A DNA stretch of 64,000 nucleotides, taken from the NCBI GenBank assembly GCA_900546715.1, contig UREA01000005.1:5032-69031 (forward strand), written 5' to 3'. Below the pieces are notes generated by a model that was given only the letters and a program-made list of their open reading frames with translations, was not told the origin of the DNA and made no database searches. A program made the position numbers and the translations under genes. Shown in pieces: positions 7,241 through 43,797 of this stretch. The stretch's first letter is position 1; each line of letters starts with the position of its first letter. This stretch comes from an uncultured Mycoplasmatota bacterium (lineage in GTDB: Bacteria > Bacillota_I > Bacilli_A > RF39 > UBA660).

Positions 7241-7423
7241 ATGAAATATACCTTATTGATTACAGAAATAAAAAAGAAAGAAAAGATTTTATATTTGAAA
7301 TCTTATGGTTATTATAAAGATTTAGTCTTTGTTGTAGAAAGACAATGGGAGAATGATAAATTAAATGATAAAGAAAGAAGTATAATGGAACATATGGGAG
7401 TTAAAACTTATGAGCTACTTTAG
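7241..7423 (+). CDS. hypothetical small protein
   Basis: ORF track only. Overlaps the dnaE start. Confidence 0.3.
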   Translation: MKYTLLITEIKKKEKILYLKSYGYYKDLVFVVERQWENDKLNDKERSIMEHMGVKTYELL

Positions 7424-8798
7424 TATTCACAATCATTCGGATATTGGCTCTAATGCAGGGCTTGGTTTTCCAGATACAATTTGTCGTGTACCCGATTTAA
7501 TTCAGAGAGCTTATGATTTAGGATTGCCTGGAATAGCTTTAACAGATCATGAATCATTAAGTGGACATATTCAAGCACTTAATTATTATAATTCTATGGG
7601 AAAAGATCGTTCTTTTACATTAGGATTAGGCAATGAAATTTATCTTGTTCCTGAAGAATGGGATGAGATAAATAAAGAACATCATAATACATATCCGTAC
7701 TGTCATTTTATTTTATTAGCTTTAGATAATGATGGACATAAACAACTTCGAGAACTTTCTACAAGAGCTTGGAAAAGAAGTTGGAAACAAAGAAGAATAT
7801 ATCGTTGTCCTACATATTATTCAGATTTAGAAGAAATTATTAAACCCAATCAAGGACATGTTATTGCTTCGACAGCTTGCTTGGGCGGAATAATTAGCAG
7901 ATTATTATTGGACAATAAATGGGAAAAAGCATTTGGAGAAAATGGAGAATTAAACAAATTTATAAATATTTTTGGGAGAGATAATATTTATCTTGAAATT
8001 CAACCTCCTAAAGATGCAAATTGCGATCAAAGTAAAGTCAATAGATTAATGTGGAAAGGTCATGAATTTACAGGAATAAAAATTATTCCGAGTTCCGATT
8101 CACATTATCTTAAAAAAGAAGATGCTTTTATTCATAAAATTTATTTAAATTCTCAAGAAGGAGATAGAGAAGTTGATGAATTTTATGCAACAACTTATCT
8201 TATGTCTCCTGATGATCTTCGAGAACATTTGTGTATAGATTTTACAGATGAACAAATAGAACAAATGTTTGAATGGTCTTTAGAAATTTGTAATAGAATA
8301 AAAGGATATAATTTTAATCATGATCCAATTATTCCTCAAATTCCAAAAGAAAAAATCCCAGATTCATTTACTATTCAGCATTGGTTCAAAGAATATTATA
8401 AAAATTATCCTGATTTTGCTTATTATGCTCTTAATAAAAACAATAACAAATGGGAAGAATATTTTTTTTATCAAGTGGAACAAGGATTAAAATCTAAAAT
8501 AGTAGATAAAGGAAAAGATTTACAATTATATATTGCTCGACTTAATGAAGAATTTGAACAATTTAGATTGATTAGTGAACAACTGAATACTTCTATTCCT
8601 TCTTATTTTTCTTCTATGTCAAAAATTATTGATCTTATATGGGAATCAAATAGTTTGGCTATGCCCGCTCGTGGTAGTAGTGCTGCGTCATTAACTAATT
8701 ATCTTTTAGAAGTTACTCAAATTGACCCTGTTCCATTAGGAAACTACTTTCCTTTCTGGAGGTTTTTAAGTGTCGAACGTGGAACAGAGCTTCCAGAT
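7410..8798 (+). CDS. dnaE: DNA polymerase III alpha (DnaE-type), exon 1: PHP domain and start of palm
   Basis: PHP motif SIHNHSDIGS ... ALTDHESLSG. The exon ends ..RFLSVERGTELPD, in the middle of the palm motif PDxDxDF. The unspliced frame hits a stop immediately after. Confidence 0.85.
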
Positions 8799-9068
8799 TA
8801 ACAACATAGTCTGGCTATATGGTGACATATAGAAAACAAGATGGTGAACCCGTACTTGCGGGGTGTGTCTAAAAAGATGCTAACAGTGAAAATCTTGGCC
8901 TACTGAATCGGGTTATGACAACACTGTGCCAAGGCCAAAAGGCAAGGTGCAACGACTAAGTGGCATTATGGTGAAATTCCTATTGTCCAGCGCCATCCTC
9001 TCTATTCTTATAGAGATGAAGATATAGTCTGATCTCATAGAAAATCATAACTATGAGCTAACACAATG
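8799..9068 (+). mobile_element. group I intron, ORF-less (dnaE intron 1)
   Basis: Follows exon U8798 and ends at G9068. Guide gtctgg (8809-8814) pairs with exon ccagat (8793-8798), with a terminal G.U. P7 strands are caacgacta (8950-8958) and aagatatagtc (9019-9029). Removal gives ..ELPD|IDNDSE.., restoring PDIDxD. Confidence 0.85.
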
Positions 9069-10197
9069 ATTGATAATGATTCAGAAGCCTCTAAAAAGAA
9101 AACAATTATAGCAAAAATTAAAGAATATTTTGGAGAAGATAAAGTATTAAATATTATAACTTTTTCAAAAATTTCTTCTAAAACTGCTATACAAAAAGCC
9201 TGCAAAGGATTAGATATTAATAATGATATCGCAGGTTACTTAAAATCTTTGATTCCCGTAGATCGTGGTAAAGTTGCTAAATTAAAAGATTGTTTATTTG
9301 GTAATAAAGAAAAAGGAATCAAACCAGTATATGAATTAGTCTCTGAGATGAAAAAATATCCTAAGTTGCAAGAAACTTGCTTAGGAATTGAAGGACTTGT
9401 AACTAATAGAGGGATTCATGCTGCGGGTATAATTATATGTAACGAACCTTATACCAATTTTCTATCCGCTATGAGATCACCAGATGGAACTTTAATTACT
9501 GGATATGATTTAATTGATGCAGAACAAGTAGGTTGCGTTAAATTTGATATGCTAACTACTACATGCACTGATAAAATTCATAAAACTTTAGATTATTTGG
9601 TTAAATACAATAAAATAAAACCGGGGAAAAATTTGAAAGAAACTTATTATAATTGGATACATCCTGACGTATTAAATTATGATAATCCTGAAATGTGGAA
9701 AATTATTCCTACAATTTATTCAGTATTTCAATTTGACACTCCTATTTCAGTTAAAGCTCTGGAAGCTACAAAACCTAAATCAGTAATGGATTTATCAGCG
9801 GCCAATAGTTTATTAAGATTACAACCTGAAAATAGTTCTATTACACCTATTGATTCTTATATTAAATATAAAAATAATCATCAAGAATGGATAGAAGATA
9901 CTAAAAATTTTGGATTGAATGATAAAGAGCGTGAAATTCTTTGGAAATATTTAGCTGATGCTTATGGATTGGCAGATAGTCAAGAAAAAATTATGCGTCT
10001 AAGTATGGACTCAGAAGTATCTGGATATAGCTTAAAAGAAGCAAATAAATTAAGAAAATCTATCGCTAAAAAAGATGAAAAACTCCAAGCTGAAGCTAAA
10101 CAACAATTTTTTGAATATGGACGAAAAATTGGAACAAGAGAAGTATTTTTAGATTATATATGGAATGTAGTATTTGCAGCAAGTATGGGATATTCGT
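9069..10197 (+). CDS. dnaE: DNA polymerase III alpha, exon 2
   Basis: Continues IDNDSE... Contains GIHAAGIIIC and VKFDMLTT, typical of DnaE palm/fingers. Ends ..ASMGYS plus one nt (phase 1). Confidence 0.85.
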
Positions 10198-11225
10198 AAA
10201 AGATTGTTTAACCTAAACCTTGTGGCATGGTTATTCAATTAAGCGCCTCATAGTAGTAATATTATGAGTGGAGTTTGTGAACTGTTTGGTCAACAGGTGT
10301 GTGAATTATATTCATGCTAACAGAAAAAGCCTAAACTGAAAACAGCAAGGTGATTCTGTGCTAAGTTATAAGAAGTTTTAATATGCAATTATATAACGGC
10401 GATTGTTTAGAAGTAATGAAATCAATTCCAAATAAATCTATTGATTTAATTCTATGTGATCTACCTTATGGTATAACTAAATGTAAATGGGATACTCCTA
10501 TTGATTTATTTGCTATGTGGAATCAATATAATAGAATAATCAAAGATAATGCCCCAATTCTTTTATTTGCTCAAACTCCTTTTGATAAAGTTCTTGGATC
10601 ATCTAATTTATCTATGCTTAAATATGAATGGATTTGGGAAAAAACACAGGCAACAGGTCATCTTAATGCAAAGAAAATGCCGATGAAAGCACATGAAAAT
10701 ATTCTTGTGTTTTATAAAAAATTGCCAATTTATAATCCACAAAAAACAACCGGCCATAAACCCATTCATTCATATACTAAATATATTAAAACTCAAAATA
10801 ATACAGAACTATATGGATATATGAAACAAGAAATATCAGGCGGAGGAGAAACAGACAGATACCCAAGAAGTATTATCACTTTTGCTTCTGACAAACAAAC
10901 TTGTCATTTACATCCTACTCAAAAACCCGTCACTTTGCTTGAGTATTTTATTAAAACTTATACGAACGAAGAAATGTTAGTCCTTGATAATTGCATGGGT
11001 TCTGGCTCCACAGGCATAGCCTGTATCAACACAAATAGGAATTTTATTGGAATTGAACTTGATAAACAATATTTTGATATCGCTAAAGAAAGATTAACTT
11101 CTTATAAAAAGTGCAACGACTAAGTGAACGGAAATTGACTACCGTTTGAGCGCAAACTACCCTAATCTTATAGATGGGTAAAGATATAGTCTGCTCTACA
11201 TAGAAATATGTAGCTAACATTAAGG
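10198..11225 (+). mobile_element. group I intron carrying a DNA methyltransferase ORF (dnaE intron 2)
   Basis: Shares the atgctaacag block, caacgacta (11114-11122), aagatatagtc (11181-11191) and the ..agctaaca..g 3' end with intron 1. Splicing U10197 to after G11225 gives GYS|FSQLHSYSYSIVALQE, matching the DnaE motif GYGFNKSHaaaYa. No convincing P1 guide was found by eye. Confidence 0.75.
10383..11123 (+). CDS. beta-class N6-adenine/N4-cytosine DNA methyltransferase (intron-encoded)
   Basis: Motif IV DLPY (LILCDLPYG) precedes the AdoMet motif DNCMGSGSTG, which is the beta-class order. HPTQKPVTLLEYFI is also present. The stop codon lies inside the intron P7 5' strand (gcaacgacTAAgtg). Confidence 0.8.
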   Translation: MQLYNGDCLEVMKSIPNKSIDLILCDLPYGITKCKWDTPIDLFAMWNQYNRIIKDNAPILLFAQTPFDKVLGSSNLSMLKYEWIWEKTQATGHLNAKKMPMKAHENILVFYKKLPIYNPQKTTGHKPIHSYTKYIKTQNNTELYGYMKQEISGGGETDRYPRSIITFASDKQTCHLHPTQKPVTLLEYFIKTYTNEEMLVLDNCMGSGSTGIACINTNRNFIGIELDKQYFDIAKERLTSYKKCND

Positions 11226-12640
11226 TCTCTCAACTACATTCATATAGCTATTCTATTGTAGCTCTTCAAGAACTTAATCTAAATTATTTTTATCCTAAGG
11301 TTTATTGGAATTGTGGTTGTCTTTCTGTTGAATCTATGGGACTTAAAGACAATGAAGATGGTACACAAAAAATTGGTAATACTAATTATGCAGAAATTTC
11401 AAAAGCCATATATAAGATGAAACAATCTGGTATAAATGTATTACCTCCTTCTATTAATAATTCTGATATAGATTATGTTCCCTCGGAAGAAAAAGATATA
11501 ATATATTTTGGCCTTATAGGAATTTCTGGAATTAATATCAACATTTGCCAACAAATTATTGAAAATAGACCTTATAATTCATTCAAAAACTTTTATGAAA
11601 AAAATTGTTATGATGGTAGTTTAATTACACATAGCAAATTTATTCAATTAATTAAAGCAGGTTGTTTTGATGAATTTAATTCAGACCGAACAATAATAAT
11701 GAAACAATATGTTATATTATCTACTCCTATTAAAGATACATTAACAATGTCTAATCTTCCAGAAATATTAAGAATTAAATGCAATATACCGAAAAATATT
11801 ATCGAGCCTTATTATTTCAAAAAATATGTAATTAATAAGCAATTTTTATATGGACAGCATCCTAATTTTAAGACAAAGAAATTATATTGGTTAGATAATA
11901 AAGCTCTAAAATACTTTGAAAAACATTGTAAATTAAAGATGAAAGAAAATATAGATTGGTTACAAAAAGATGATTTAACTTTAATAGTTGACAAATCTTT
12001 AGAGAAAGCAATTTCTTCTCAAATACAGTCTTTGAAAGATTATATTTCCAATCCTTCTTTTATACAAGAATATAAAAATAAAACATATATATATTATTAT
12101 TCAAATATGTTAGATAATAAAGACCCTAATCATTGGTCTATTGAATCATGTGGATTTTATTCTAATCAACACGAATTATTAAACATCAATAGACAAAAAT
12201 ATAATATTTCTTTATTTGATGATATTCCTTTGTCTCCCGTATTTTATACCGAAAAATACGGAAAAAAAGAATGGAAGAAATATGAATTATATCAAATTGC
12301 TGGAACAGTTATTGATAAAATTGACAATCATCATTTAGTTACTATTCTTGATATTAATAACAAAGTAATCCAATGCAAGTTTGATAAAAATGATTATGCT
12401 TATTATAAAGCTCAAATTAGTGACACAAATGGTGATAAAGGAAAAAATATAATAGAAATTTCTTGGTTTAGAAGAGGAACAACTTTAATTTTAACTGGAT
12501 ACCGTATAGGATTAAATGATTTTCGCATAAAAACTTACAAAAACTCAATTTATAACAAAAAAGTAAAAAAAATTTGTTCTATCAATGATAAAACCGGAGA
12601 AATTATTACTCAAAGTGATAAACAAATAATTGAAAAATAA
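11226..12640 (+). CDS. dnaE: DNA polymerase III alpha, exon 3: C-terminal part with OB-fold region
   Basis: The frame is open from 11226, upstream of the first ATG at 11336. FSQLHSYSYSIVALQELNLNYFYPKVYW continues the DnaE motif. Confidence 0.8.
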
Positions 12641-32693: not shown

Positions 32694-32730
32694 TTAAAAA
32701 TATAAGAGGGGAAGTTATCCCCTCTTATAT
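32694..32730 (-). terminator. hairpin overlapping the tape measure stop codon
   Basis: Stem ataagagggg/cccctcttat, followed on the - strand by atattttt. Confidence 0.45.
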
Positions 32731-35700
32731 GCTGTCTGATAAGCAAAATTAACTAAAGATTGAACAAATTCTTGAACGTCATTTTTATTCTTAATACTTG
32801 GGAAAGATAAATCTACATTACTCATATTAAGCTGGAATCCTTTGTCTTCTGTCGGTAAATTGCTTAAAAGATCAATAGGATTCATTTTGCCCCAATCCCA
32901 TAAATTCTTTGTGACATCAGAAGGGAGAATACTATCCCCAGTATTTAATAACCTAAGTTCAGGCCCTTCTTCTCCCACAAGAGACATACCGCCTTTAGAA
33001 GACAAAGTGCCCTTAGCATTCTTTTCAACTAATTTGCTCCAAAGACCATTAATTGGATTATATTTAGCACCAGGAGTATATGGATGTACAATCTCATAAT
33101 CTCCTCCGGCTGTATGAATAATATCACCAATAGTAGCACCTTCTGGAGCATTACCGCCTGGAGCTACATCTAAATGTTTCCCGCCACCAACATATTCACT
33201 TTGATAGCTACCATCTTCATTAACTCCTGTAATTCTATAATTACCACCAGCAGTTGAAACTATTGTGCCAACAGGTAATCCCTTAGTTTGTGTTTTACCA
33301 TCCTTAATATCAACATCTATAACACCGACACCAGGAACCCAAGCAGTACCCGGAGTCCCTCTTCCACCTTCGGCATTTGGACCAGATACTACTGTATTTT
33401 TATCTTGCCCTGTTTGCCAATTTTCGTTTTCGAGTTGTTGCATGAGTTGAATATATCGGTCAACATAATCCTGTAAATTACCAAGACGTTTTTCCCAATT
33501 ATCTCCCTCAAGTTTAATACCTAATATTTGTTCGGCTAATAAACGATCTTGAAGATCATTGACTTCGTCAATAGCACTACCATATTCATCAACATAATCC
33601 TGCCAATATTTAATTTTTTCTTCAAGAATTTTTAACTCTTCGTCTCTATTTTTCTCTAACTGCTCTATTTGCTCTTCGAGAGCCTTTTCAGCCTTATATC
33701 TATCCAGCTCTTTTTGCGCTTCAGAAATAGCGTCTGTATCTTGTATATATTGAAACCGTCCATCTTTATATACATACAATTTTTGAGTACGAGCTTTTGC
33801 TAAGGCATCCAACTTTTCTTGAAGCTCTATCTGCTCATTAGTTTCTTCATTTTGCTTCTCTAATTTTTCTATCTCAGCATCATATTTATCATTAATAGCA
33901 TCTTTTTGCTCTTCGAGTTTGTCTATTTCTCTTTGAGCTAATTCAGCTACATAATTTAAGGCTTTTTCAATATTATCAGCTTCAGTTTCCCACGCATCAC
34001 GTTCAGCCTCTATATAATTATCGAGCGCATCTTCTCGTTGTTCAAGATAATACTCATAATCAATTAAGCCTTGTTCATACCAATCGTCCATCCATTCCAT
34101 GACGCGACGCCAAGCATCAATTTCATTATCAGCGCCCCAATCATTGAAATAATTACGATCTTCTATATAATCTTCTGAGCGTTTTAATCGTTTATCAAAG
34201 GCATCCTGTTGGAGTTTAAGAATATCTTCTTCATACCCCCACCACTCTTTCTGAAGTTCCATTATATACTCAGACTCATCGTCAAGTCCTTGTTTTCTAT
34301 AACTTTCAGCTTCATCATGAGCTTTCTTTTGCATTTGACGTAAATGAGCTATCTGTTCTTGTTCAGTAGCACCATTCTTTTCCATTAAATACAATTTATG
34401 ATCTAATATATCCATCTGTTCTTTATACAGATCATTTTGTTCTTTAATGGCATCATTTTCATCCTTTATTGCTTTGGTAGAAGATTTAGCAGTAGATGTC
34501 TTTTTCTTGGAAGCAGAAGATGAAGAGGAAGAAGAAGGTTTTTTAGAAGATGGCGGTTTCGAGGTAGAAGGTTTTGACCCAGAAGGTTTTTTATCTCCCC
34601 ATAAATTTCCAACAGTGTCTGAAACATCTATTATAGATTGTCTTCCTGTACCTTGAGCATATCCACCTTTTACATCTTCTTTTTCTACTTTATGCCCAAC
34701 ATTCCTACTAATGTCTTTATTAGAAGTAACAACCGCTCCTTTGGGTAAAGTAACTATTTCAGGACCTTGTTCTCCTACCCAATATTGCCCGGCTCTATTT
34801 ACTTTACCTCCCTGAGCTTTGCCGCCGCCAAGATCAGGAATAATATAACCTAAAACTTTCTGAGCACCGGAACCAATTTGTGAAATAATTCCCTTCAAAC
34901 TATTCCAAATTGAACTGACTCTATTATAACAATTTTGAGCAGCAGAAATTAAACCGCTGAATGCGCCCTGAGATGCACTTGTATCTACTGGATTATTTGT
35001 AACCTCTTGTTGAGCATCTTTTACTCCTTCAACAGGTCCAGCAGCATCTTCAGCCGCAGACTTTTCTTCATTTAATTCGGTCTGACTTGCATCTGTATTA
35101 GCCGGATTTTCAGTCACTCTCTTTTGAGCAGTGGCAACTAATTCTAATGCTCTTGCATCGGCATCTGCTACTCCCTTACTCTCTAAGAAAGAAGCAATCA
35201 TGTCAACATTCGCATTAGCCAGTCCTTCAACGCCTAATTGAGCCTCTAACATCGTATAAGCTAAATTAGTGACTTGTTCTTGAAATTCCTCAAAAGTGGT
35301 AGAACCAGATACAAGCCCCTCAAGAATTTCATCCCAACCTTCCAATCCACTAAATGCTTCATTTAACTGCATAATAGACTCAAAACTTAACTGTCCATTT
35401 TCAGCAAATTCAGCTACAGATTGAGAAAGTATGTCAAAATATCCGCCTACATCTCCTAAACCACTTAATTGCCCTGATAAAGAATTTATGCTTTCTGCCG
35501 CCGCCTCAATAGTTGTTCCAAAATGATCCTGAAAGAAATCAAGAACACTAATGGTTTCTCCATTTAGTACCATTACAGCATTCTTTAATCGTTTTGGAAG
35601 CTCTCCTGTCTTTGCATATAACTGAGTCATTGTATCCCAATATTCAGTTAATACGCCCTCTTGCTCTAAAAGGTCATCATTAGCTTCAGCTATTTGCTTA

Positions 35701-36884
35701 AAATCGCCAGTACTTAAAGCCTCATCGACTGCTTTTTGATAATTATTCCACTGAGTAATTGCTTTTTCGATATATAGCTCAGTGTCCATCATTTCTCCAG
35801 TAATAGTAGCACGAGTTTTTTGTCCTGATGCTATTCTATCACCGATCGGAGAAGCAGTTAAAATAGCTTCTAATTTTTCAGTCTCAAGAGACGCTATATT
35901 GTTCTTCATCTGTTTTAATTGCTCATTATAAGCTGCTAAAACAGATGCACTTGCACCGCTACCCTCTAATTCTGCTATTTTCTGTTCAAGTTCGGAAACA
36001 GCTTCTGTTGTTTCATCAATCTCATCTTGAATAACATGCTCGGCAGTAGCTTCTTCCATAGATTTCTTTGCAGCAAATCCAATGGAAATAAGCGCACTAA
36101 CTAACATCGCAATAGGTCCAGCAAAAGTCCCTATTTTGCTTAATGCCCCAGATAGTTTACCAACAGAACCAGACGCTTTACCAGCGGCAGAAGCAATACC
36201 ACTTATAGCATCACCAGTAGCAGAAGCAGCGGAAGCAGCTTTGCCCACATCCCCCATAGTGGAAAACAATTTACCCATATTAACAAATTTAGCTCCCACT
36301 TTCCCGGCAATAGCTAAGAAACCTGTGAGAACTCCGCTTAATAAAGTAAATTGTGTTACTGCTACGCCAACATCTGTTGATAATAACTCTAACCCAGTGT
36401 TAGCTAAATCTAATATTCCTTTAACCAAATCACTATCTATAACAGAAGTAGATAGTTCTTGGAAAGTATTTTTAAGGTTGCCAACTTTTGCCTCTAAGCT
36501 ATCCATATAAGCGGCATTTTCTCTTGTGGCAGAACCTGCAGAATCCATTGCAGTTGCCGTTGCACTTATAGCAGATTCAAAGTTGGTCATAACAGAAGTT
36601 AATACGTTAAATTGGTTTTTACCAGCAAGAGCCTCACCAATAGCAGCTTGTTCTACACTGGCTAATTCATCCCAAGCAACCGATTGACCTTCTACACCTT
36701 CATAAAGTTCTTTTAAAACTTCATATGTTGATTTCATTTCTCCCTGAGAATCTCTCAGAGAAATATTAACTTTGCCATTAGCAGCTACATATTTATCTGT
36801 TTCAGCCGCTAATGCTGCTATGTTCAACCCTATTGTTCGTAGACCATTGCCCACCTTACTTGGCTGGCCTACAAGGATTTCAGT
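32715..36884 (-). CDS. tail tape measure protein, exon 5
   Basis: The frame is open upstream of the track start back to 36884. It begins TEILVGQPSKVGNGLRTIGLNI, the conserved TMP core motif. Long coiled coils, hydrophobic segments and two VGE.GPE motifs follow. Confidence 0.85.
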   Translation of the reverse strand, partial: TEILVGQPSKVGNGLRTIGLNIAALAAETDKYVAANGKVNISLRDSQGEMKSTYEVLKELYEGVEGQSVAWDELASVEQAAIGEALAGKNQFNVLTSVMTNFESAISATATAMDSAGSATRENAAYMDSLEAKVGNLKNTFQELSTSVIDSDLVKGILDLANTGLELLSTDVGVAVTQFTLLSGVLTGFLAIAGKVGAKFVNMGKLFSTMGDVGKAASAASATGDAISGIASAAGKASGSVGKLSGALSKIGTFAGPIAMLVSALISIGFAAKKSMEEATAEHVIQDEIDETTEAVSELEQKIAELEGSGASASVLAAYNEQLKQMKNNIASLETEKLEAILTASPIGDRIASGQKTRATITGEMMDTELYIEKAITQWNNYQKAVDEALSTGDFKQIAEANDDLLEQEGVLTEYWDTMTQLYAKTGELPKRLKNAVMVLNGETISVLDFFQDHFGTTIEAAAESINSLSGQLSGLGDVGGYFDILSQSVAEFAENGQLSFESIMQLNEAFSGLEGWDEILEGLVSGSTTFEEFQEQVTNLAYTMLEAQLGVEGLANANVDMIASFLESKGVADADARALELVATAQKRVTENPANTDASQTELNEEKSAAEDAAGPVEGVKDAQQEVTNNPVDTSASQGAFSGLISAAQNCYNRVSSIWNSLKGIISQIGSGAQKVLGYIIPDLGGGKAQGGKVNRAGQYWVGEQGPEIVTLPKGAVVTSNKDISRNVGHKVEKEDVKGGYAQGTGRQSIIDVSDTVGNLWGDKKPSGSKPSTSKPPSSKKPSSSSSSSASKKKTSTAKSSTKAIKDENDAIKEQNDLYKEQMDILDHKLYLMEKNGATEQEQIAHLRQMQKKAHDEAESYRKQGLDDESEYIMELQKEWWGYEEDILKLQQDAFDKRLKRSEDYIEDRNYFNDWGADNEIDAWRRVMEWMDDWYEQGLIDYEYYLEQREDALDNYIEAERDAWETEADNIEKALNYVAELAQREIDKLEEQKDAINDKYDAEIEKLEKQNEETNEQIELQEKLDALAKARTQKLYVYKDGRFQYIQDTDAISEAQKELDRYKAEKALEEQIEQLEKNRDEELKILEEKIKYWQDYVDEYGSAIDEVNDLQDRLLAEQILGIKLEGDNWEKRLGNLQDYVDRYIQLMQQLENENWQTGQDKNTVVSGPNAEGGRGTPGTAWVPGVGVIDVDIKDGKTQTKGLPVGTIVSTAGGNYRITGVNEDGSYQSEYVGGGKHLDVAPGGNAPEGATIGDIIHTAGGDYEIVHPYTPGAKYNPINGLWSKLVEKNAKGTLSSKGGMSLVGEEGPELRLLNTGDSILPSDVTKNLWDWGKMNPIDLLSNLPTEDKGFQLNMSNVDLSFPSIKNKNDVQEFVQSLVNFAYQTAYKRG

Positions 36885-37253: not shown

Positions 37254-37389
37254 ACCAGCCGTAACCAAACCTATCGTCTCTTCAAATGTATTCCCTGTTG
37301 TTCCTAATGCTGTACCAGCTTTTATAAGAGCAGTAGATAAATCATTAGTACCAACAGCAAAATTATTGGCTGTCTCATTGCTATATTAA
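37254..37389 (-). CDS. tail tape measure protein, exon 4
   Basis: Encodes (V)NETANNFAVGTNDLSTALIKAGTALGTTGNTFEETIGLVTAG, a canonical TP901-type TMP core. It has no start codon of its own. Confidence 0.8.
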
Positions 37390-37724
37390 AATAAATTTTT
37401 ATTATTTGTTTAATATTCGACTATATCTTTATATTTAACTAAATATATCAGGGCGCTTGGGCTTTCGCCTACTCTACTCACTTCGTCTATTAAAATAGCT
37501 TATTCTCTATTAAGAGTTACATTTATCATTTGCTTTCGATAGTCTGTGAAGATTCATCTTTGTTTCAAAAGATGCTTTCCTGCGGATTGTTTATTATTAT
37601 ATCCTTTTTCCTTATTACTATTCCTTTGACATTACTCTCAGCCCTTATAATATCACTATTATAAGTTAGTAGAAAAAGACATTAAAATATTCCCGCAATT
37701 CACCCTAAAACGGCCTTTATTAAA
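37390..37724 (-). mobile_element. group I intron, ORF-less (TMP intron 3)
   Basis: Follows exon U37725 and ends at G37390. Guide gccgt (37714-37710) pairs with exon gcggt. P7 3' strand is aagatatagtc (+ strand gactatatctt, 37428-37438). Confidence 0.8.
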
Positions 37725-37924
37725 ACCGCATCAATAATATGCTCGGAATTTTCAGCCTCTATATTAAAGGCTTTCATTTGAGAGATCAAAAATCGTGCTG
37801 CGTCAGCACTTGATACTTGAGTATCAGCTATATTTGTATATTTAACCGCTATTTCTGCTAATAAAGCAGAATCACTATCATCAAAAGAGTTTTTTCTGAA
37901 TTCAGTGGCAGCTTGTAACATTTC
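37725..37924 (-). CDS. tail tape measure protein, exon 3
   Basis: Encodes EMLQAATEFRKNSFDDSDSALLAEIAVKYTNIADTQVSSADAARFLISQMKAFNIEAENSEHIIDA(V). The exon may begin 3 nt earlier, at 37927. Confidence 0.75.
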
Positions 37925-37930
37925 CGACAG

Positions 37931-38188
37931 TTAATCATCTATTGGACCATATTCTTCCATTTGTTCATTTTGCTCTCGATTATCTTCTTCAATCATTGAT
38001 TCAATAACTCCTTCATCTGTTTTCTCCTTTGAAAAAATAGCACAAAAAATCCCTGTTATTCCTACCATAATAAATGGTAAACAAACTACAATTTTTGGCA
38101 ATTCAGAAGGTCCAGCATAAAGAATAGCTAAAAGAATAAACCAAGCAATTATTAAAACAAAAACAAACAAACACACCATGACTCCCAT
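37931..38188 (-). CDS. intron-encoded small membrane protein (two TM helices plus an acidic tail)
   Basis: RBS aaggaga and ATG at 38188. Sequence VCLFVFVLIIAWFILLAILYA and IVVCLPFIMVGITGIFCAIF, then EEDNREQNEQMEEYGPIDD. The stop lies 3-6 nt before the 3' splice site. Confidence 0.5.
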   Translation of the reverse strand: MGVMVCLFVFVLIIAWFILLAILYAGPSELPKIVVCLPFIMVGITGIFCAIFSKEKTDEGVIESMIEEDNREQNEQMEEYGPIDD

Positions 38189-38209
38189 CTCCTTTTTAAT
38201 TCTATTATA

Positions 38210-38239
38210 ATTTTATCACTCATAAAATTAAAAAGTCAA
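38210..38239 (-). promoter_or_regulatory. sigma70-like promoter inside TMP intron 2
   Basis: On the - strand: ttgact (38239-38234), 18 nt, then extended -10 TGaTAAAAT (38218-38210). Confidence 0.45.
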
Positions 38240-38559
38240 TAGACAATTTTAACAAAAATACTTTCATATTTTCCTGGACTATTTCTTCACCCTATAATAT
38301 TTGGAGGGGTCGAACTTTTAAAGTCTCTTGACACATCCCTCATCAGGACTTCGCAACCAATCAACCATTCAATGATTATATAATCATTCCAGACTTAGGT
38401 ATTTCTACCATATCTTATTCTATTTATTGTTAATAGTTTCCCGCATTCATATTATCATATCTCATATAATATTGTAGCTAAATAGACTTTAGGTGTTATT
38501 GGATTTTGAACGATTCTCAGTGCTAATTTACCATCTTAACACTCCGGCCAGAAATATTA

Positions 38560-38648
38560 ACCGGTACGCCCAAACTGTTTACCAGCTTGAGATAATTGTG
38601 AAGTATAACTCTGCAGTCCTTCTTCACTCAGGTCAGAAACTTTCTTGA
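38560..38648 (-). CDS. tail tape measure protein, exon 2 (89 nt micro-exon)
   Basis: Encodes (F)KKVSDLSEEGLQSYTSQLSQAGKQFGRTG, which matches the TMP consensus ..ALTEFRKVSDLSgE.. when joined to exon 1. It falls below the ORF-track length threshold. Confidence 0.75.
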
Positions 38649-39046
38649 CATTTATATTAGGAAGTAATTGATAAAATATCAATTATATGGACGCTACTCC
38701 ATTCCCCTGTTTATATAACAGCTTTAATTTTCATTAAAGATTAGACTATATCTTCTTCTATAAATAATAGAAGTGTGCCATTTCAAAATACCAAACACTT
38801 GTATTTTTACTCCTTTTCAGGATAGTCGTTGAACGTTCCTTTATTCAAGGCTTCGCTGCTGATTATCTATTAATATTTACTTAGGATTTAACCATATAAA
38901 CATATTTTGCTTTTTTTCTACTTTCGTAACATTCACACTTAGGCATGTTTCATCCTTATGTTGTAGTAGCAAAATCTTTAAGACGTCCCAGCAATTAGAC
39001 ACATATTTTTACACTCATCTCACAATAAGCGAGAGCAAAAAAGTTC
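38649..39046 (-). mobile_element. group I intron, ORF-less (TMP intron 1)
   Basis: Follows exon U39047 and ends at G38649. Guide gctct (39036-39032) pairs with exon agagt. P7 strands are caacgacta (+ strand tagtcgttg, 38823-38831) and aagatatagtc (+ strand 38744-38754). The 5' half is near-identical to the tail-tube intron. Confidence 0.85.
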
Positions 39047-41457: not shown

Positions 41458-41790
41458 TTATTCTACAGTCACCTTAACAAATGCAGGTTCTACTTTGCCC
41501 GTATAATCAGTTAAATTAACAGAAACAATAGCTGTACCAGCAATAGAACCAGCAGTTATTTTACCATCATGTGCCCCAACAGCAGTACCGGTAGCAGTAG
41601 AAGCAGGATCACTTTCTATTGCAAAAGTAAAGTTAGAATTATCTTTCCGCTGTGCAGGAAGAGTACCTTTATAAATTACTCTAACAGATAAGGTTTCAGT
41701 CCCATTTTGAGAAAGTTCAACATCACCGTTTTCTACAGCAATACCAATAACATCATCCTGCCATTTAGCATTATAAATTTCCTCGGTCAT
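41458..41790 (-). CDS. Ig-like (Big_2-type) domain protein, in frame with the tube gene behind a single TAA
   Basis: Typical Big_2 pattern ..VELSQNGTETLSVRVIYKG...GKITAGSIAGTAIVSVNL.. . Own ATG with a weak RBS (aagg). Confidence 0.55.
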   Translation of the reverse strand: MTEEIYNAKWQDDVIGIAVENGDVELSQNGTETLSVRVIYKGTLPAQRKDNSNFTFAIESDPASTATGTAVGAHDGKITAGSIAGTAIVSVNLTDYTGKVEPAFVKVTVE

Positions 41791-41796
41791 AGTACC

Positions 41797-41888
41797 TTAA
41801 TAGGGGTCCTCTTCACAACTGGTCTCATCATTAATAGCTAAAGCAGAACCAGTTAAAGAAACGGTAGCAGCACCAGTAGAAGTTAGTG
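41797..41888 (-). CDS. major tail (tube) protein, exon 2
   Basis: Encodes (S)LTSTGAATVSLTGSALAINDETSCEEDPY*. An alternative 3' splice site after G41903 would add NQNLA. Confidence 0.6.
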
Positions 41889-43145
41889 CAAGATTTTGAT
41901 TACTTTATGTTCACATAAGTTCGTTAATCTTATGCCGTTTTTAACAGCTTACACTTTCGTGCAAGAACAGACTATATGTTCAACTTAATTGTTCGTTATT
42001 CGTCATGTCAATATACCCAATAGAATGACCGGCCAACAAATAATCAATTTCTTGTTGTAATCTTTCTATTGTAGGTATACTATCTTTTTTATCACCTAAA
42101 ATACGCAAAACTTTATACCCTTGATTAATCAACCAATGATTTCTACGTCTATCATAATCTTTCATATCTTTATGCCAAAATACCCCGTCATACTCGACAT
42201 CAATCTTAACATTATTAAGAATTAATAGACAATCTAAATTTATTTTATCAACAGGATAACCAGGTTTGCAATTTTCTTTACCATATAATTGAATTAACAT
42301 ATTGATAATTTTTTGTTCTGGCTTAGATGTTGGCACTGTTCCATTTTTATACATAGATTTTTTGGCCTTAGCTTGCAATATATCACTTTTAACAGGATTA
42401 TCAACACCATAATTTTTAATCATACTATTTTTAAATTTTTCTTGTCCTATTTTTGTTTGCATAGCATAAGGTTTGCCGTATTTAGAAATCATTGACTCTT
42501 TAGCTTTAGCCCGTAATTTTTTATTTCCCCATAAAGAAGTTGAATTATATTTTCTTAATAAAGTATCTCGTATTTTTAGTTGTTTACATTGTTTACATGC
42601 CTGTTTACCGCGATCTTTTCCAATATTATAATTTGCATATCTTGTTTGATATTGTCTTCCGCAATAATCACATATACAAATCACATTCATTCGACTTCTT
42701 AAAGGCATATCTTTTGCAGGAACAAAAAACTCATCACCAATATATGTATAATGATATCCTTTGCTAATATAATGTTTTTTATTATTTGAAGACCATTTTA
42801 CTGATATTATTTGATTATCATTAAACATTTCATTCCTCCTTTCTATAAAAATATAACGAACAATCAAGTGCCGGATTTTTCAACTCACTTGAGTTTACTT
42901 CCCCACAAGGGAATAGTCGTTGAACCTTTCTCTATTCGAGAAGTGGCTGCTAAATACCCATTGCATAAACACTTAGGATTTAACCTTATGTCATTCTTTG
43001 CTTTTTTTCTACTTTCGTAACATTCACACTTAGGCATATTTCATCCTTATGTTGTAGTAGCAAAGACTTTAGGGATTCAAAGCAATTAACCCGGAGCATA
43101 TACTAATCACTTAATATATGTGGCATTATTTTTAAGCAATCTTGG
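41889..43145 (-). mobile_element. group I intron with a homing-endonuclease-like ORF (tail tube intron)
   Basis: Follows exon U43146. An 8-bp P1 forms between guide gcttaaaa (43137-43130) and exon ttttaagt. P7 strands are caacgacta (+ strand 42914-42922) and acatatagtc (+ strand 41970-41980). A 40-nt block (42998-43037) is identical to TMP intron 1 (38907-38946). Confidence 0.8.
41980..42828 (-). CDS. intron-encoded putative homing endonuclease (zinc ribbon, K..k.SM..kYG repeats, C-terminal Vsr/DUF559-like PD-(D/E)XK domain)
   Basis: ATG at 42828 after RBS aaggagg. CICDYCG...CKQCK zinc ribbon. Three repeats: KAKESMISKYGKP, KFKNSMIKNYGVDNP and KAKKSMYKNG. The C-terminus IDVEYDGVFWH...GYKVLRI resembles a DUF559/Vsr-type nuclease. 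The stop abuts the P7 3' strand. Confidence 0.55.
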   Translation of the reverse strand: MFNDNQIISVKWSSNNKKHYISKGYHYTYIGDEFFVPAKDMPLRSRMNVICICDYCGRQYQTRYANYNIGKDRGKQACKQCKQLKIRDTLLRKYNSTSLWGNKKLRAKAKESMISKYGKPYAMQTKIGQEKFKNSMIKNYGVDNPVKSDILQAKAKKSMYKNGTVPTSKPEQKIINMLIQLYGKENCKPGYPVDKINLDCLLILNNVKIDVEYDGVFWHKDMKDYDRRRNHWLINQGYKVLRILGDKKDSIPTIERLQQEIDYLLAGHSIGYIDMTNNEQLS

Positions 43146-43797
43146 ACTTAAAAATTTCACCATCCATTTGTAATCTTGGTACATCAGTAATTAACCGACC
43201 ACAACGGGTCTGATCAGTTTGTACATTAATATCACCAGAATATAAATCATTTAAAATAACCACATGAAGTTCAGAAGGAACATATTGAGTTTTAATTCTA
43301 ATAGATTTAGCGTTCTCATTCTGATAAAAATACTTGACACAATAATGATCGTTGCTCTGAGAACTAGGAATCGTCATAGTATTGCCACTAATAGCACCGA
43401 TCGTCCAATTAGAATCAGCAGGTTTCTTATACCAACCAATTAAAGTACCATCGAACATCACAGGAGTCTCAGTGAGTTCAACATTGCCTCCACCACCACT
43501 GACTGTCACTTCTTCTTCTATAACAGATAAGCCTCCAGATTCAATATTAACGCCAAGAGAAGCCGCAATATACTCGAAGTTGAACATTGTGTCGGTCAAA
43601 GTGATAGCTAAGTTACTGTCATGGAAGAATTTACCCCACAAAGCATTACCTTGACCGCCACGAACTTCTTCGGCGGTAATAGTGAAATCGAAGGTAGTAT
43701 CAGTTAAAGTTTTAGCTACGCCAATTAACTCATTATTCTTAAAAATTAATGCACGACCTACGCCAGCAGCATAATGATTTTGAGCCATTAATTTCAC
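43146..43797 (-). CDS. major tail (tube) protein, exon 1
   Basis: Position and size fit a tube protein, and the exon ends in ..LITDVPRLQMDGEIFK. The stop codon of the unspliced frame lies inside the intron guide sequence. Confidence 0.65.

Follow-up and report, generated by a model that had tools for sequence, protein, structure and literature searches.

How can a group I intron carry, beyond its ribozyme core, a separately promoted gene for a small membrane protein, and how would its distant 3' splice site then be recruited? Both questions are raised by intron 2 of the tape-measure protein (TMP) gene of an SPbeta-like phage module, which lies on the minus strand of a 64,000-nt stretch of DNA from an uncultured Mycoplasmatota bacterium (assembly GCA_900546715.1, contig UREA01000005.1, positions 5,032 to 69,031), called the window below. 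An earlier note, made by reading the letters of the window alone, had described a promoter, a ribosome-binding site and an open reading frame (ORF) for a two-helix membrane protein in the part of the intron that follows the ribozyme core. The analysis reported here places this cargo in the loop of a 3'-terminal hairpin, conserved as an arrangement in a family of introns that occupy the same TMP codon position. With moderate confidence, we read the element as a group I intron that would splice itself while its 3'-terminal hairpin carries a moron-like cargo, an independently expressed accessory membrane protein. Nucleotide i of the intron corresponds to window position 38560-i, the coordinates of all features are collected in Table 1, and related loci are identified by L numbers.

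Intron boundaries and splice sites

Precise in silico excision of intron 2 restores the TMP reading frame, and this result, together with the covariation described below, bears out the earlier assignment of the insertion to the group I introns. Seven intron-less TMP homologues from gut metagenome-assembled genomes (MAGs; Bacilli, Coprobacillaceae, Ca. Scybalousia, Ca. Coprovivens, Anaeroplasma and Clostridium sp.), with 34-56% identity, run uninterrupted across the junction between exons 2 and 3. The homologues read KTG-T-EM at this point; splicing after G37928 would give RTG-S-EM, and splicing after G37925 would give RTG-EM. The latter site leaves the protein one residue short with respect to the intron-less homologues and was rejected. 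We place the 3' splice site after G37928 because of the extra residue in the homologues, because all 25 related introns have at this site a G followed by TCNGANATG (TCCCAAATG in L018), the terminal omega-G being invariant, and because P10 fits. This last helix forms as UCAGA/UCUGA in most members and as UCCC/GGGA in L018, with five of its six pairs present in the window. The stop codon of the cargo ORF is close to the splice site, as had been claimed, and the distance, first given as 3-6 nt, can be refined to 3 nt. An in-frame AUG of TMP (37921-37919, the conserved Met of S-E-M) is found 9 nt past the cargo stop, and there, in principle, ribosomes that terminate on transcripts from the intron promoter might re-initiate into exon 3.

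At the 5' splice site, the exon sequence CCGGU (38564-38560) pairs with GCCGG (38548-38544) to form P1. All five pairs are retained in the 22 distinct introns aligned for covariation, one of them occurring as C-G, G-C and U-A, and the pair at the splice site is U.G in 18 introns and C-G in three. As a separate observation, the final base of exon 2 in L073, L089, L092 and L098 is C rather than U (GGC vs GGU), and the splice-site pair of P1 would thus be C-G, or unpaired in L098, instead of the canonical U.G.

The ribozyme core is supported by covariation

Using the alignment of 22 introns we evaluated a P1-P9 model with P5 extensions, in which P7 forms a pseudoknot with P3. Standard pairs fill 83.6% of the cells, as compared with 72.3% in shuffled controls and 31-47% when the partners are slid by 1-3 columns. 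Thirty-five pairs are altered on both sides, and the covariation score of 0.342 contrasts with 0.03-0.12 in the slid controls. Covariation was observed in P1, P2, P3, P6, P7, P9 and P10. The third pair of P7 occurs as A-U, G-C and C-G, and the complete helix is also seen as GAAU/AUUC and GAGU/ACUC; five of the seven pairs of P2 are compensated, as are two in P6. For P3, inspection of the four closest subfamilies by eye shows position 47:250 as U-A, C-G and G-C. Covariation in P4, P5 and P5a is less clean, because the more distant subfamily is displaced in the MAFFT alignment. The R and S consensus elements are recognisable as GUCAAGAGACU and GAAGAAAUAGUCC, and P7.1/P7.2 are absent from the core. 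Both the P1 pairing (gccgg/ccggt) and the P7-like strand some 280 nt into the intron that the earlier reading had picked out are present. Although Rfam alone is inconclusive, we regard intron 2 as a group I intron because covariation settles the question.

Alternative pairings for three helices were discarded. P7 as AGUCU (nt 165-169) with AGACU (nt 234-238) conflicts with the covariation of nt 145-148 with nt 166-169 (G-C to C-G), which extends a GNRA hairpin; P4 as CGGGA (nt 117-121) with UCCUG (nt 212-216) conflicts with that of nt 211-215 with nt 221-225 in P6; and the two candidates for P3, UUGAAU (nt 188-193) and GGUUGA (nt 194-199), both break in type B and the other subfamilies. Among close relatives the core is nearly invariant, with five of 305 columns variable, versus 9-19% of the columns in the ORF.

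The cargo lies in the loop of a 3'-terminal hairpin

That the cargo follows the core was already recognised in the earlier reading; more precisely, the 326 nt of intron 2 beyond the core constitute the loop of a 3'-terminal hairpin. In the minimum free energy fold of this extension, the closing stem consists of 4 bp, an AA bulge and 11 bp. Its 5' strand follows P9 directly and its 3' strand comprises the end of the ORF (Table 1). A change of GAUGAU to GACAAU in relatives converts G.U pairs of the stem to G-C and U-A. Duplex analysis of 25 family members revealed equivalent closing stems in other subfamilies, with unrelated sequences and 11-18 contiguous base pairs, which bring the promoter region and the ORF end together. 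The stem of L074 contains 15 perfect pairs, ACAAAUUAUUCAAUA with UAUUGAAUAAUUUGU, and those of L081, L079, L060 and L076 contain 18, about 17, 11 and 10 + 11 bp, respectively. Because this arrangement recurs with unrelated sequences, we interpret the cargo as having been inserted into the terminal loop of a hairpin resembling P9.1. The closing stem would return the 3' splice site to the core, and it therefore offers an answer to the question of how a site so distant is recruited. Given that it overlaps both the -35 hexamer and the stop codon, one and the same sequence would function as a signal in DNA, as a structural element in RNA and as part of a coding region.

The terminal loop of a peripheral hairpin is the usual place for the endonuclease ORFs of introns. 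In L069 (2462-4000), this TMP codon position is taken up by a homologous, more diverged intron with a 391-aa endonuclease-like ORF in the equivalent loop and no sigma-A promoter, which may represent the ancestral state of the cargo site. Two scans of viral contigs for ORF-less versions of the intron, in which the exon would resume 25-86 nt after the core, gave nothing or chance coding matches.

A conserved, predicted sigma-A promoter precedes the cargo ORF

The promoter sequence given in the earlier note (ttgact, 18 nt, TGaTAAAAT) is present and scores 10/12 with the TG element. It is among the two best of 16 promoter-like sites in the region, a number that does not exceed chance in AT-rich DNA (13.7 expected). 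In the family the case is stronger: TTGACA, a 17-nt spacer (16 in L098), TG at -15/-14 and TAnnnT are found in 24 of the 25 ORF-bearing introns, at the same position just after P9, within surrounding sequence that has diverged. The window version is slightly weaker than the family promoter. This conservation in 24 of 25 diverged family members is good evidence for a functional sigma-A promoter within the intron, its activity and timing being predictions.

A local hairpin (38235-38192; -12.9 kcal/mol, z = -2.4) spans the region from the promoter spacer to the Shine-Dalgarno sequence. Its pairing is preserved by three substitutions in relatives, and it could form only on the read-through pre-mRNA, as it is absent from RNA initiated at the intron promoter. 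A conserved hairpin sequestering the ribosome-binding site was looked for in the other subfamilies and is not consistently present, and a translation control like that of I-TevI is a possibility only.

Downstream of the cargo, a terminator-like hairpin with a U-tract occurs in exon 3, and it may, speculatively, end the transcripts from the intron promoter. Hairpins at the equivalent position of exon 3 are also seen in L069, L072, L078, L081 and L082. Of the intron-bearing TMP alleles, 13 of 24 have a terminator-like site within 400 nt, as compared with 2 of 30 intron-less ones, figures uncorrected for phylogeny.

The cargo is a constrained gene for a small membrane protein

The strong ribosome-binding site of the earlier note is present as GGAG. 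The ORF also stands, with a length of 82 rather than 85 residues: translation is taken to start at ATG 38179, 9 nt after GGAG, because ATG 38188 abuts GGAG and the gene callers agree on the former in relatives. Both transmembrane (TM) helices described earlier are recovered, at about residues 2-21 and 29-49, and so is the very acidic tail, residues 50-82 containing 13 acidic and 3 basic residues (net -10) and ending in EEYGPIDD. Structure prediction, which had been suggested as a check, was performed with AlphaFold2 and gave helices at 2-21 and 24-76 with a mean pLDDT (predicted local distance difference test) of 73.

Selection was assessed on seven distinct intact alleles. Between the window and the commonest allele group there are 11 synonymous and 5 non-synonymous changes (pS 0.22, pN 0.026), corresponding to pN/pS of about 0.12 for the whole ORF and 0/0.19 for the TM part, where six to eight synonymous changes and no non-synonymous ones were observed. 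Because of this pattern of purifying selection and the conserved protein family described below, the sequence comparison supports the view that the cargo ORF is a real gene.

Disruption of the ORF in relatives, which the earlier note had named as evidence against a role for the protein, was found for the tail but not for the TM helices. In 8 of 18 close copies, from several independent samples, one T is lost from a T6 run, giving a protein of 53-54 aa that keeps both helices, whereas the intact copies are constrained. This loss of the tail fits an accessory gene, possibly one subject to phase variation. A second T6 run occurs in the ORF (38037-38032), and L008 and L009 lose one T there too; the recurrent loss of T in such runs could reflect either decay or slipped-strand phase variation.

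The claim that the protein is not an endonuclease holds for the window ORF and 15 family members, in which no Pfam or PHROG match to LAGLIDADG, GIY-YIG, HNH, His-Cys, PD-(D/E)xK or EDxHD was detected. Neither megablast and blastn with the region and the core nor tblastn with the ORF matched any of 50,697 phage records. A phmmer search of the ORF against 1.84 billion representatives returned close relatives only, plus three likely spurious matches, and Foldseek with the AlphaFold2 model against BFVD gave nothing at E <= 0.001. Pfam, PHROGs and PADLOC yielded weak, generic membrane-type matches only; no holin family appeared among the Pfam or PHROG matches, and no PADLOC family reached E <= 0.1 for the cargo proteins. 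The 3' part of the intron holds no tnpA or tnpB, the 82-aa ORF being its only one and having no transposase domain.

A family of introns with membrane-protein cargo at one TMP position

To define the family, IMG/VR was searched by a pattern scan and then by a protein-guided scan with the spliced TMP N-terminus. The pattern scan recovered the same intron at 96-97% identity, as well as a core with 76% identity from a phage of higher GC content (L018, L022 and L025), inserted at an identical codon position of TMP. In this L018-type intron the core is followed by TTGACA-17-TATAAT, which includes TG, then by a Shine-Dalgarno sequence and an ORF of 77 aa with a single TM segment, whose end lies 7 nt short of the splice site. 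The protein-guided scan gave 71 loci, in at least 29 of which the tblastn alignment breaks exactly between query residues 121 and 122; the insertions at this point measure 600-1530 nt, and all share conserved blocks with the intron of the window.

The other introns carry one to three cargo ORFs, with two or three in tandem in L070, L077 and L078, which encode proteins of 64-148 aa with one to four TM segments. Each protein has a linker rich in K, E, Q and R, and most have a C-terminal [WY]G motif, as in KYDNDWGYIR, QYDDWGFIE, NDWGFIDYSKKD, EQEYGIIDFFDKDK and DDERWGKL. The tail of the window protein (...QMEEYGPIDD) aligns on this motif, the G of which is invariant across 15 diverse cargo proteins. 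A two-TM ORF in L087, ending in ENEYGIIDSHDKEK (ENEYGIID), bridges the window tail to the remaining family. In a BLASTP comparison the window and L018 proteins do not match significantly, and their kinship is visible only because of the multi-member alignment and the bridging ORF of L087. In L018, L060 and L079 the motif is retained even though it lies upstream of the closing-stem strand; it is therefore a feature of the protein, not a by-product of the RNA helix.

A profile search extended the family to 546 protein clusters, none with a Pfam domain and only one with a name, an automatic label that is probably spurious. In both genomic contexts sampled for these clusters, the gene lies between TMP fragments. 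The single-TM members have basic residues after the helix (e.g. YTTKRK), and because of these residues and the positive-inside rule the tail of the cargo protein is probably cytoplasmic.

Proposed mechanism and function

According to the model we favour, on the late pre-mRNA the core (nt 1-306) would fold first, and the long-range closing stem would then form between the sequence that follows P9 and includes the -35 hexamer and the last cargo codons with the stop. This would loop out about 290 nt and set omega-G (37928) two nucleotides past the base of the stem, whereupon P10 would align exon 3 and TMP exons 2 and 3 would be ligated. Separately, the host sigma-A RNA polymerase would initiate at the extended -10 promoter in the loop. 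As the resulting transcript would contain neither the ribozyme nor the 5' strand of the stem, the 82-aa ORF could be translated from it without competing with splicing. The product would be accessory, dispensable for virion production and kept by selection, and would most likely act at the host membrane in favour of the phage or prophage. The layout resembles that of a moron, with a host-type promoter within a late operon, a small membrane protein, presence in only some relatives, and numbers of ORFs and TM segments that vary. Superinfection exclusion, by blocking the DNA entry of related phages, is our leading guess; in our ranking, this or another membrane-level competition comes first, ahead of an effect on lysis timing, action as a toxin and a function connected with TMP.

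Several results weigh against this interpretation. Against Rfam RF00028 intron 2 scores 27.9 bits, the gathering score being 50, and only P2, P8, P7' and P9 are aligned. The stretch from the ORF to the 3' splice site contains no terminator, the sole candidate lying inside exon 3. The tail, along with the family motif, is deleted in the 8 of 18 relatives mentioned above, and is thus dispensable in circulating lineages. The searches revealed no homology of the cargo to exclusion, holin, toxin or defence families, and the splicing of intron 2 is itself predicted from in silico support.

A more specific proposal is that in this intron family the homing endonuclease has been replaced by a diversifying, promoter-driven membrane-protein cassette that acts against competing phages, for instance by blocking the TMP-mediated genome entry of rivals. 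We consider it unlikely. If true, the intron would persist through the advantage given to its carrier and not through DNA cleavage, a drive independent of any homing endonuclease.

The cargo might instead be a holin- or antiholin-like protein, the cassette adding to lysis or tuning its timing, which we judge rather improbable. The small size, the family pattern of one to four TM segments with a highly charged tail behind them and the predicted helical hairpin with a long C-terminal helix would all suit such a protein. Holin tails are usually basic, however, and that of the window is very acidic; no holin family was matched in Pfam or PHROGs, a strong sigma-A promoter of constitutive type is unlike the late-timed expression of holins, and the location in a tail gene is outside any lysis cassette.

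Less credible still is a membrane-active, type I-like toxin or addiction factor stabilising the intron or the prophage. Type I toxins are carried by SPbeta-type prophages, the peptide is small and hydrophobic, and some members have a structured 5' leader beside the Shine-Dalgarno sequence. No antisense promoter or antitoxin was identified, though, and at 64-148 aa with long charged tails the proteins exceed the typical size of type I toxins, while the conserved strong promoter and good Shine-Dalgarno sequence favour routine expression.

About as doubtful is the suggestion that the cassette serves the intron or TMP itself, either through a membrane-tethered protein whose C-terminal motif binds TMP or an assembly partner or through a promoter and leader ORF that cause re-initiation at the in-frame TMP AUG, yielding an N-terminally truncated TMP. 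Wherever the family was met in the loci examined, it occupied this single site of TMP, and exon 3 has an invariant ATG at a distance of 9-25 nt from the cargo stop; but this Met is also conserved in the intron-less homologues, several subfamilies have a terminator-like hairpin further on in exon 3, and the interaction with TMP is a supposition.

Least probable of all is a decaying or incidental ORF whose promoter-like sequence and 3' codons are retained only as RNA helices for splicing: the -35/spacer region and the last codons do form the two strands of the closing stem, the frameshift affects 8 of 18 relatives and the regional promoter count is not above chance, but a non-functional ORF is unlikely because of the substitution pattern, with 10 synonymous and about one non-synonymous changes in the TM part, which is outside any helix; in addition, some members retain the [WY]G motif although it precedes the stem strand, conservation extends to the -10 hexamer, TG and the spacing of 17 nt in a region only partly within the stem, and members carry one to three ORFs, each with its own motif.

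Phage context and other introns of the window

The window has a G+C content of 30%, and the SPbeta-like structural module occupies its minus strand from about 16.8 to 62 kb, with YonB, YomX, YomW and YomU_Tube domains present in relatives. The tape-measure families PF10145 and phrog_4211 are matched by a 1379-aa ORF (36854..32715) and by short ORFs upstream of it. The gene is interrupted by four group I introns, and removing all of them in silico yields a single ORF of 1620 aa. The N-terminal 300 residues of the spliced protein give a continuous PF10145 match over residues 113-296 with 72 bits, as compared with 15.7 bits for exon 3 alone. The junction between exons 1 and 2 is defined by relatives without intron 1.

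Table 1. Positions of the tape-measure gene segments, ribozyme helices and cargo elements of intron 2 in the window.
Feature	Position	Strand	Remarks
TMP intron 1	39046..38649	minus	Rfam 65.4 bits; boundaries set by relatives without intron 1
TMP exon 2	38560..38648	minus	ends ...ACC GGU; last 5 nt are the P1 exon strand
TMP intron 2	37928..38559	minus	632 nt; carries membrane-protein cargo
Ribozyme core	38254..38559 (nt 1-306)	minus	supported by covariation
P10	intron nt 6-11	minus	
Internal guide sequence (IGS)/P1	intron nt 12-16	minus	
P2	intron nt 17-41	minus	
P3	intron nt 47-49 with 248-250	minus	
P4	intron nt 57-62 with 199-204	minus	
P5	intron nt 66-68 with 194-196	minus	
P5 extensions	intron nt 74-169	minus	
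P6	intron nt 206-229	minus	
P7 (R/S)	intron nt 235-238 with 280-283	minus	GACU 38325-38322, AGUC 38280-38277
P8	intron nt 250-253 with 268-271	minus	
P9	intron nt 287-306	minus	GAAA loop
Closing stem, 5' strand	38237..38253	minus	GUUA-AA-AUUGUCUAUUG; directly after P9; overlaps -35 hexamer
Extended -10 promoter, sigma-A type (predicted)	38210..38239	minus	TTGACT 38239-38234, 18-nt spacer, TGa, TAAAAT 38215-38210
Local hairpin	38192..38235	minus	14 + 5 bp; promoter spacer to first Shine-Dalgarno G
Shine-Dalgarno sequence	38192-38189	minus	GGAG
Cargo ORF with stop	37931..38179	minus	82 aa; stop TAA 37933-37931
T6 run in ORF	38044..38049	minus	one T lost in 8/18 relatives
Closing stem, 3' strand	37930..37944	minus	CAAUAGAUGAU-UAAC; last four ORF codons and stop; 2 nt before omega-G 37928
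TMP exon 3	37725..37927	minus	begins UCG GAA AUG; nt 1-6 can pair with IGS nt 6-11 (P10)
Terminator-like hairpin and U-tract	37785..37809 (hairpin 37809-37795)	minus	in exon 3, 119 nt past 3' splice site
TMP intron 3	37724..37381	minus	missing in L003, L005, L006
TMP intron 4	37253-~36885	minus	

Intron content varies among relatives, L001-L010 being without intron 1 and three of them without intron 3 as well (Table 1). Introns 3 and 4 are about 83% identical to one another, which suggests a duplication or ectopic homing inside one gene. An intron-2-less TMP homologue from a Bacilli MAG (L011, 6510-7957) carries about 1.4 kb of inserted sequence where intron 4 lies in the window, and to judge from this insertion that position is another recurrent insertion site in the TMP gene.

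On the plus strand, a DnaE-like gene for DNA polymerase III alpha (7410-12640) is split into at least three pieces (7410-8801, 9066-10199 and 11336-12640), with sub-threshold Rfam group I matches at 8789-9050 (49.5 bits) and 10991-11213 (40.4 bits). The window therefore holds seven introns or more. The YomU-like tail-tube gene (41458-43797, minus strand) is apparently broken by an insertion with a 295-aa ORF (42867-41980) that contains domains of endonuclease type (DUF7487, DUF559 and MTES_1575), and this insertion also has a weak group I match (42108-41948). Among the viral contigs, the 73-kb IMGVR_UViG_3300045988_168969 contains the TMP region twice in inverted orientation (L023/L026 and L046/L047), probably as an assembly chimera rather than as a biological arrangement.

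Comparison with known systems

Group I introns of phages are usually viewed as bare ribozymes or as vehicles of homing endonucleases. The family described here, spread over many phages of gut Firmicutes, reuses one peripheral loop for what would be an autonomous expression cassette. Provided that the promoter is active, such loops are a new site in which to seek moron, exclusion and anti-defence genes overlooked by annotation pipelines, as the cargo ORFs sit amid the fragments of a seemingly broken TMP gene. The family also provides a natural system for studying how far a ribozyme tolerates a promoter and a translated ORF in a terminal loop, and why a selfish intron retains cargo other than an endonuclease.

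The closest parallel is found in phage T4, where intron ORFs have their own internal promoters and structure near the ribosome-binding site forms only on transcripts initiated upstream (PMC2988022). The td/I-TevI, nrdD/I-TevII and nrdB/I-TevIII introns resemble intron 2 in that the ORF of a phage group I intron is looped out in a peripheral element and has a promoter within the intron, inside the transcription unit of the host gene. Unlike in T4, the cargo here is one to three small membrane proteins instead of a homing endonuclease, and the promoter is of the host sigma-A extended -10 type rather than phage middle or late; sequestration of the ribosome-binding site, moreover, is not a consistent feature of this family. 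For the T4 sunY intron, the complete core is reported to lie upstream of the ORF, with the 3' splice junction far away.

In the IStrons of Clostridioides and the Bacillus cereus group, a group I core is fused at its 3' end to an IS200/IS605 element. They share with intron 2 the 5' ribozyme core, a 3' cargo that is not an endonuclease and the distant 3' splice site. Intron 2 differs from them in having a promoter-driven membrane-protein cassette with no TnpA/TnpB and no ends of an insertion sequence, and in its insertion at one conserved TMP codon position.

Morons, too, combine their own promoter with a small accessory ORF in a late structural operon and vary in presence among relatives, and HK97 gp15, a small inner-membrane superinfection-exclusion protein, is said to be encoded beside the TMP gene. 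Here, in contrast to morons, the cassette lies within a presumably self-splicing intron inside the TMP coding sequence rather than in an intergenic position, coding resumes after the ORF without an intervening terminator, and the product shows no sequence similarity to any known moron product. The rps3 gene in the rnl intron of fungal mitochondria is another case of a group I intron with a gene other than an endonuclease; it differs in being an organellar housekeeping gene, with no internal promoter and unrelated to membrane proteins or phages.

The earlier note had called the arrangement unusual, and the literature searched on intron-borne morons, membrane proteins and cargo offered no precedent for it. 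Intron ORFs that bear promoters are already known from T4, and a core followed by a long 3' cargo from sunY and the IStrons. What is new is the kind of cargo, a sigma-A-driven cassette for small membrane proteins of an undescribed family, at one codon position of the tape-measure gene.

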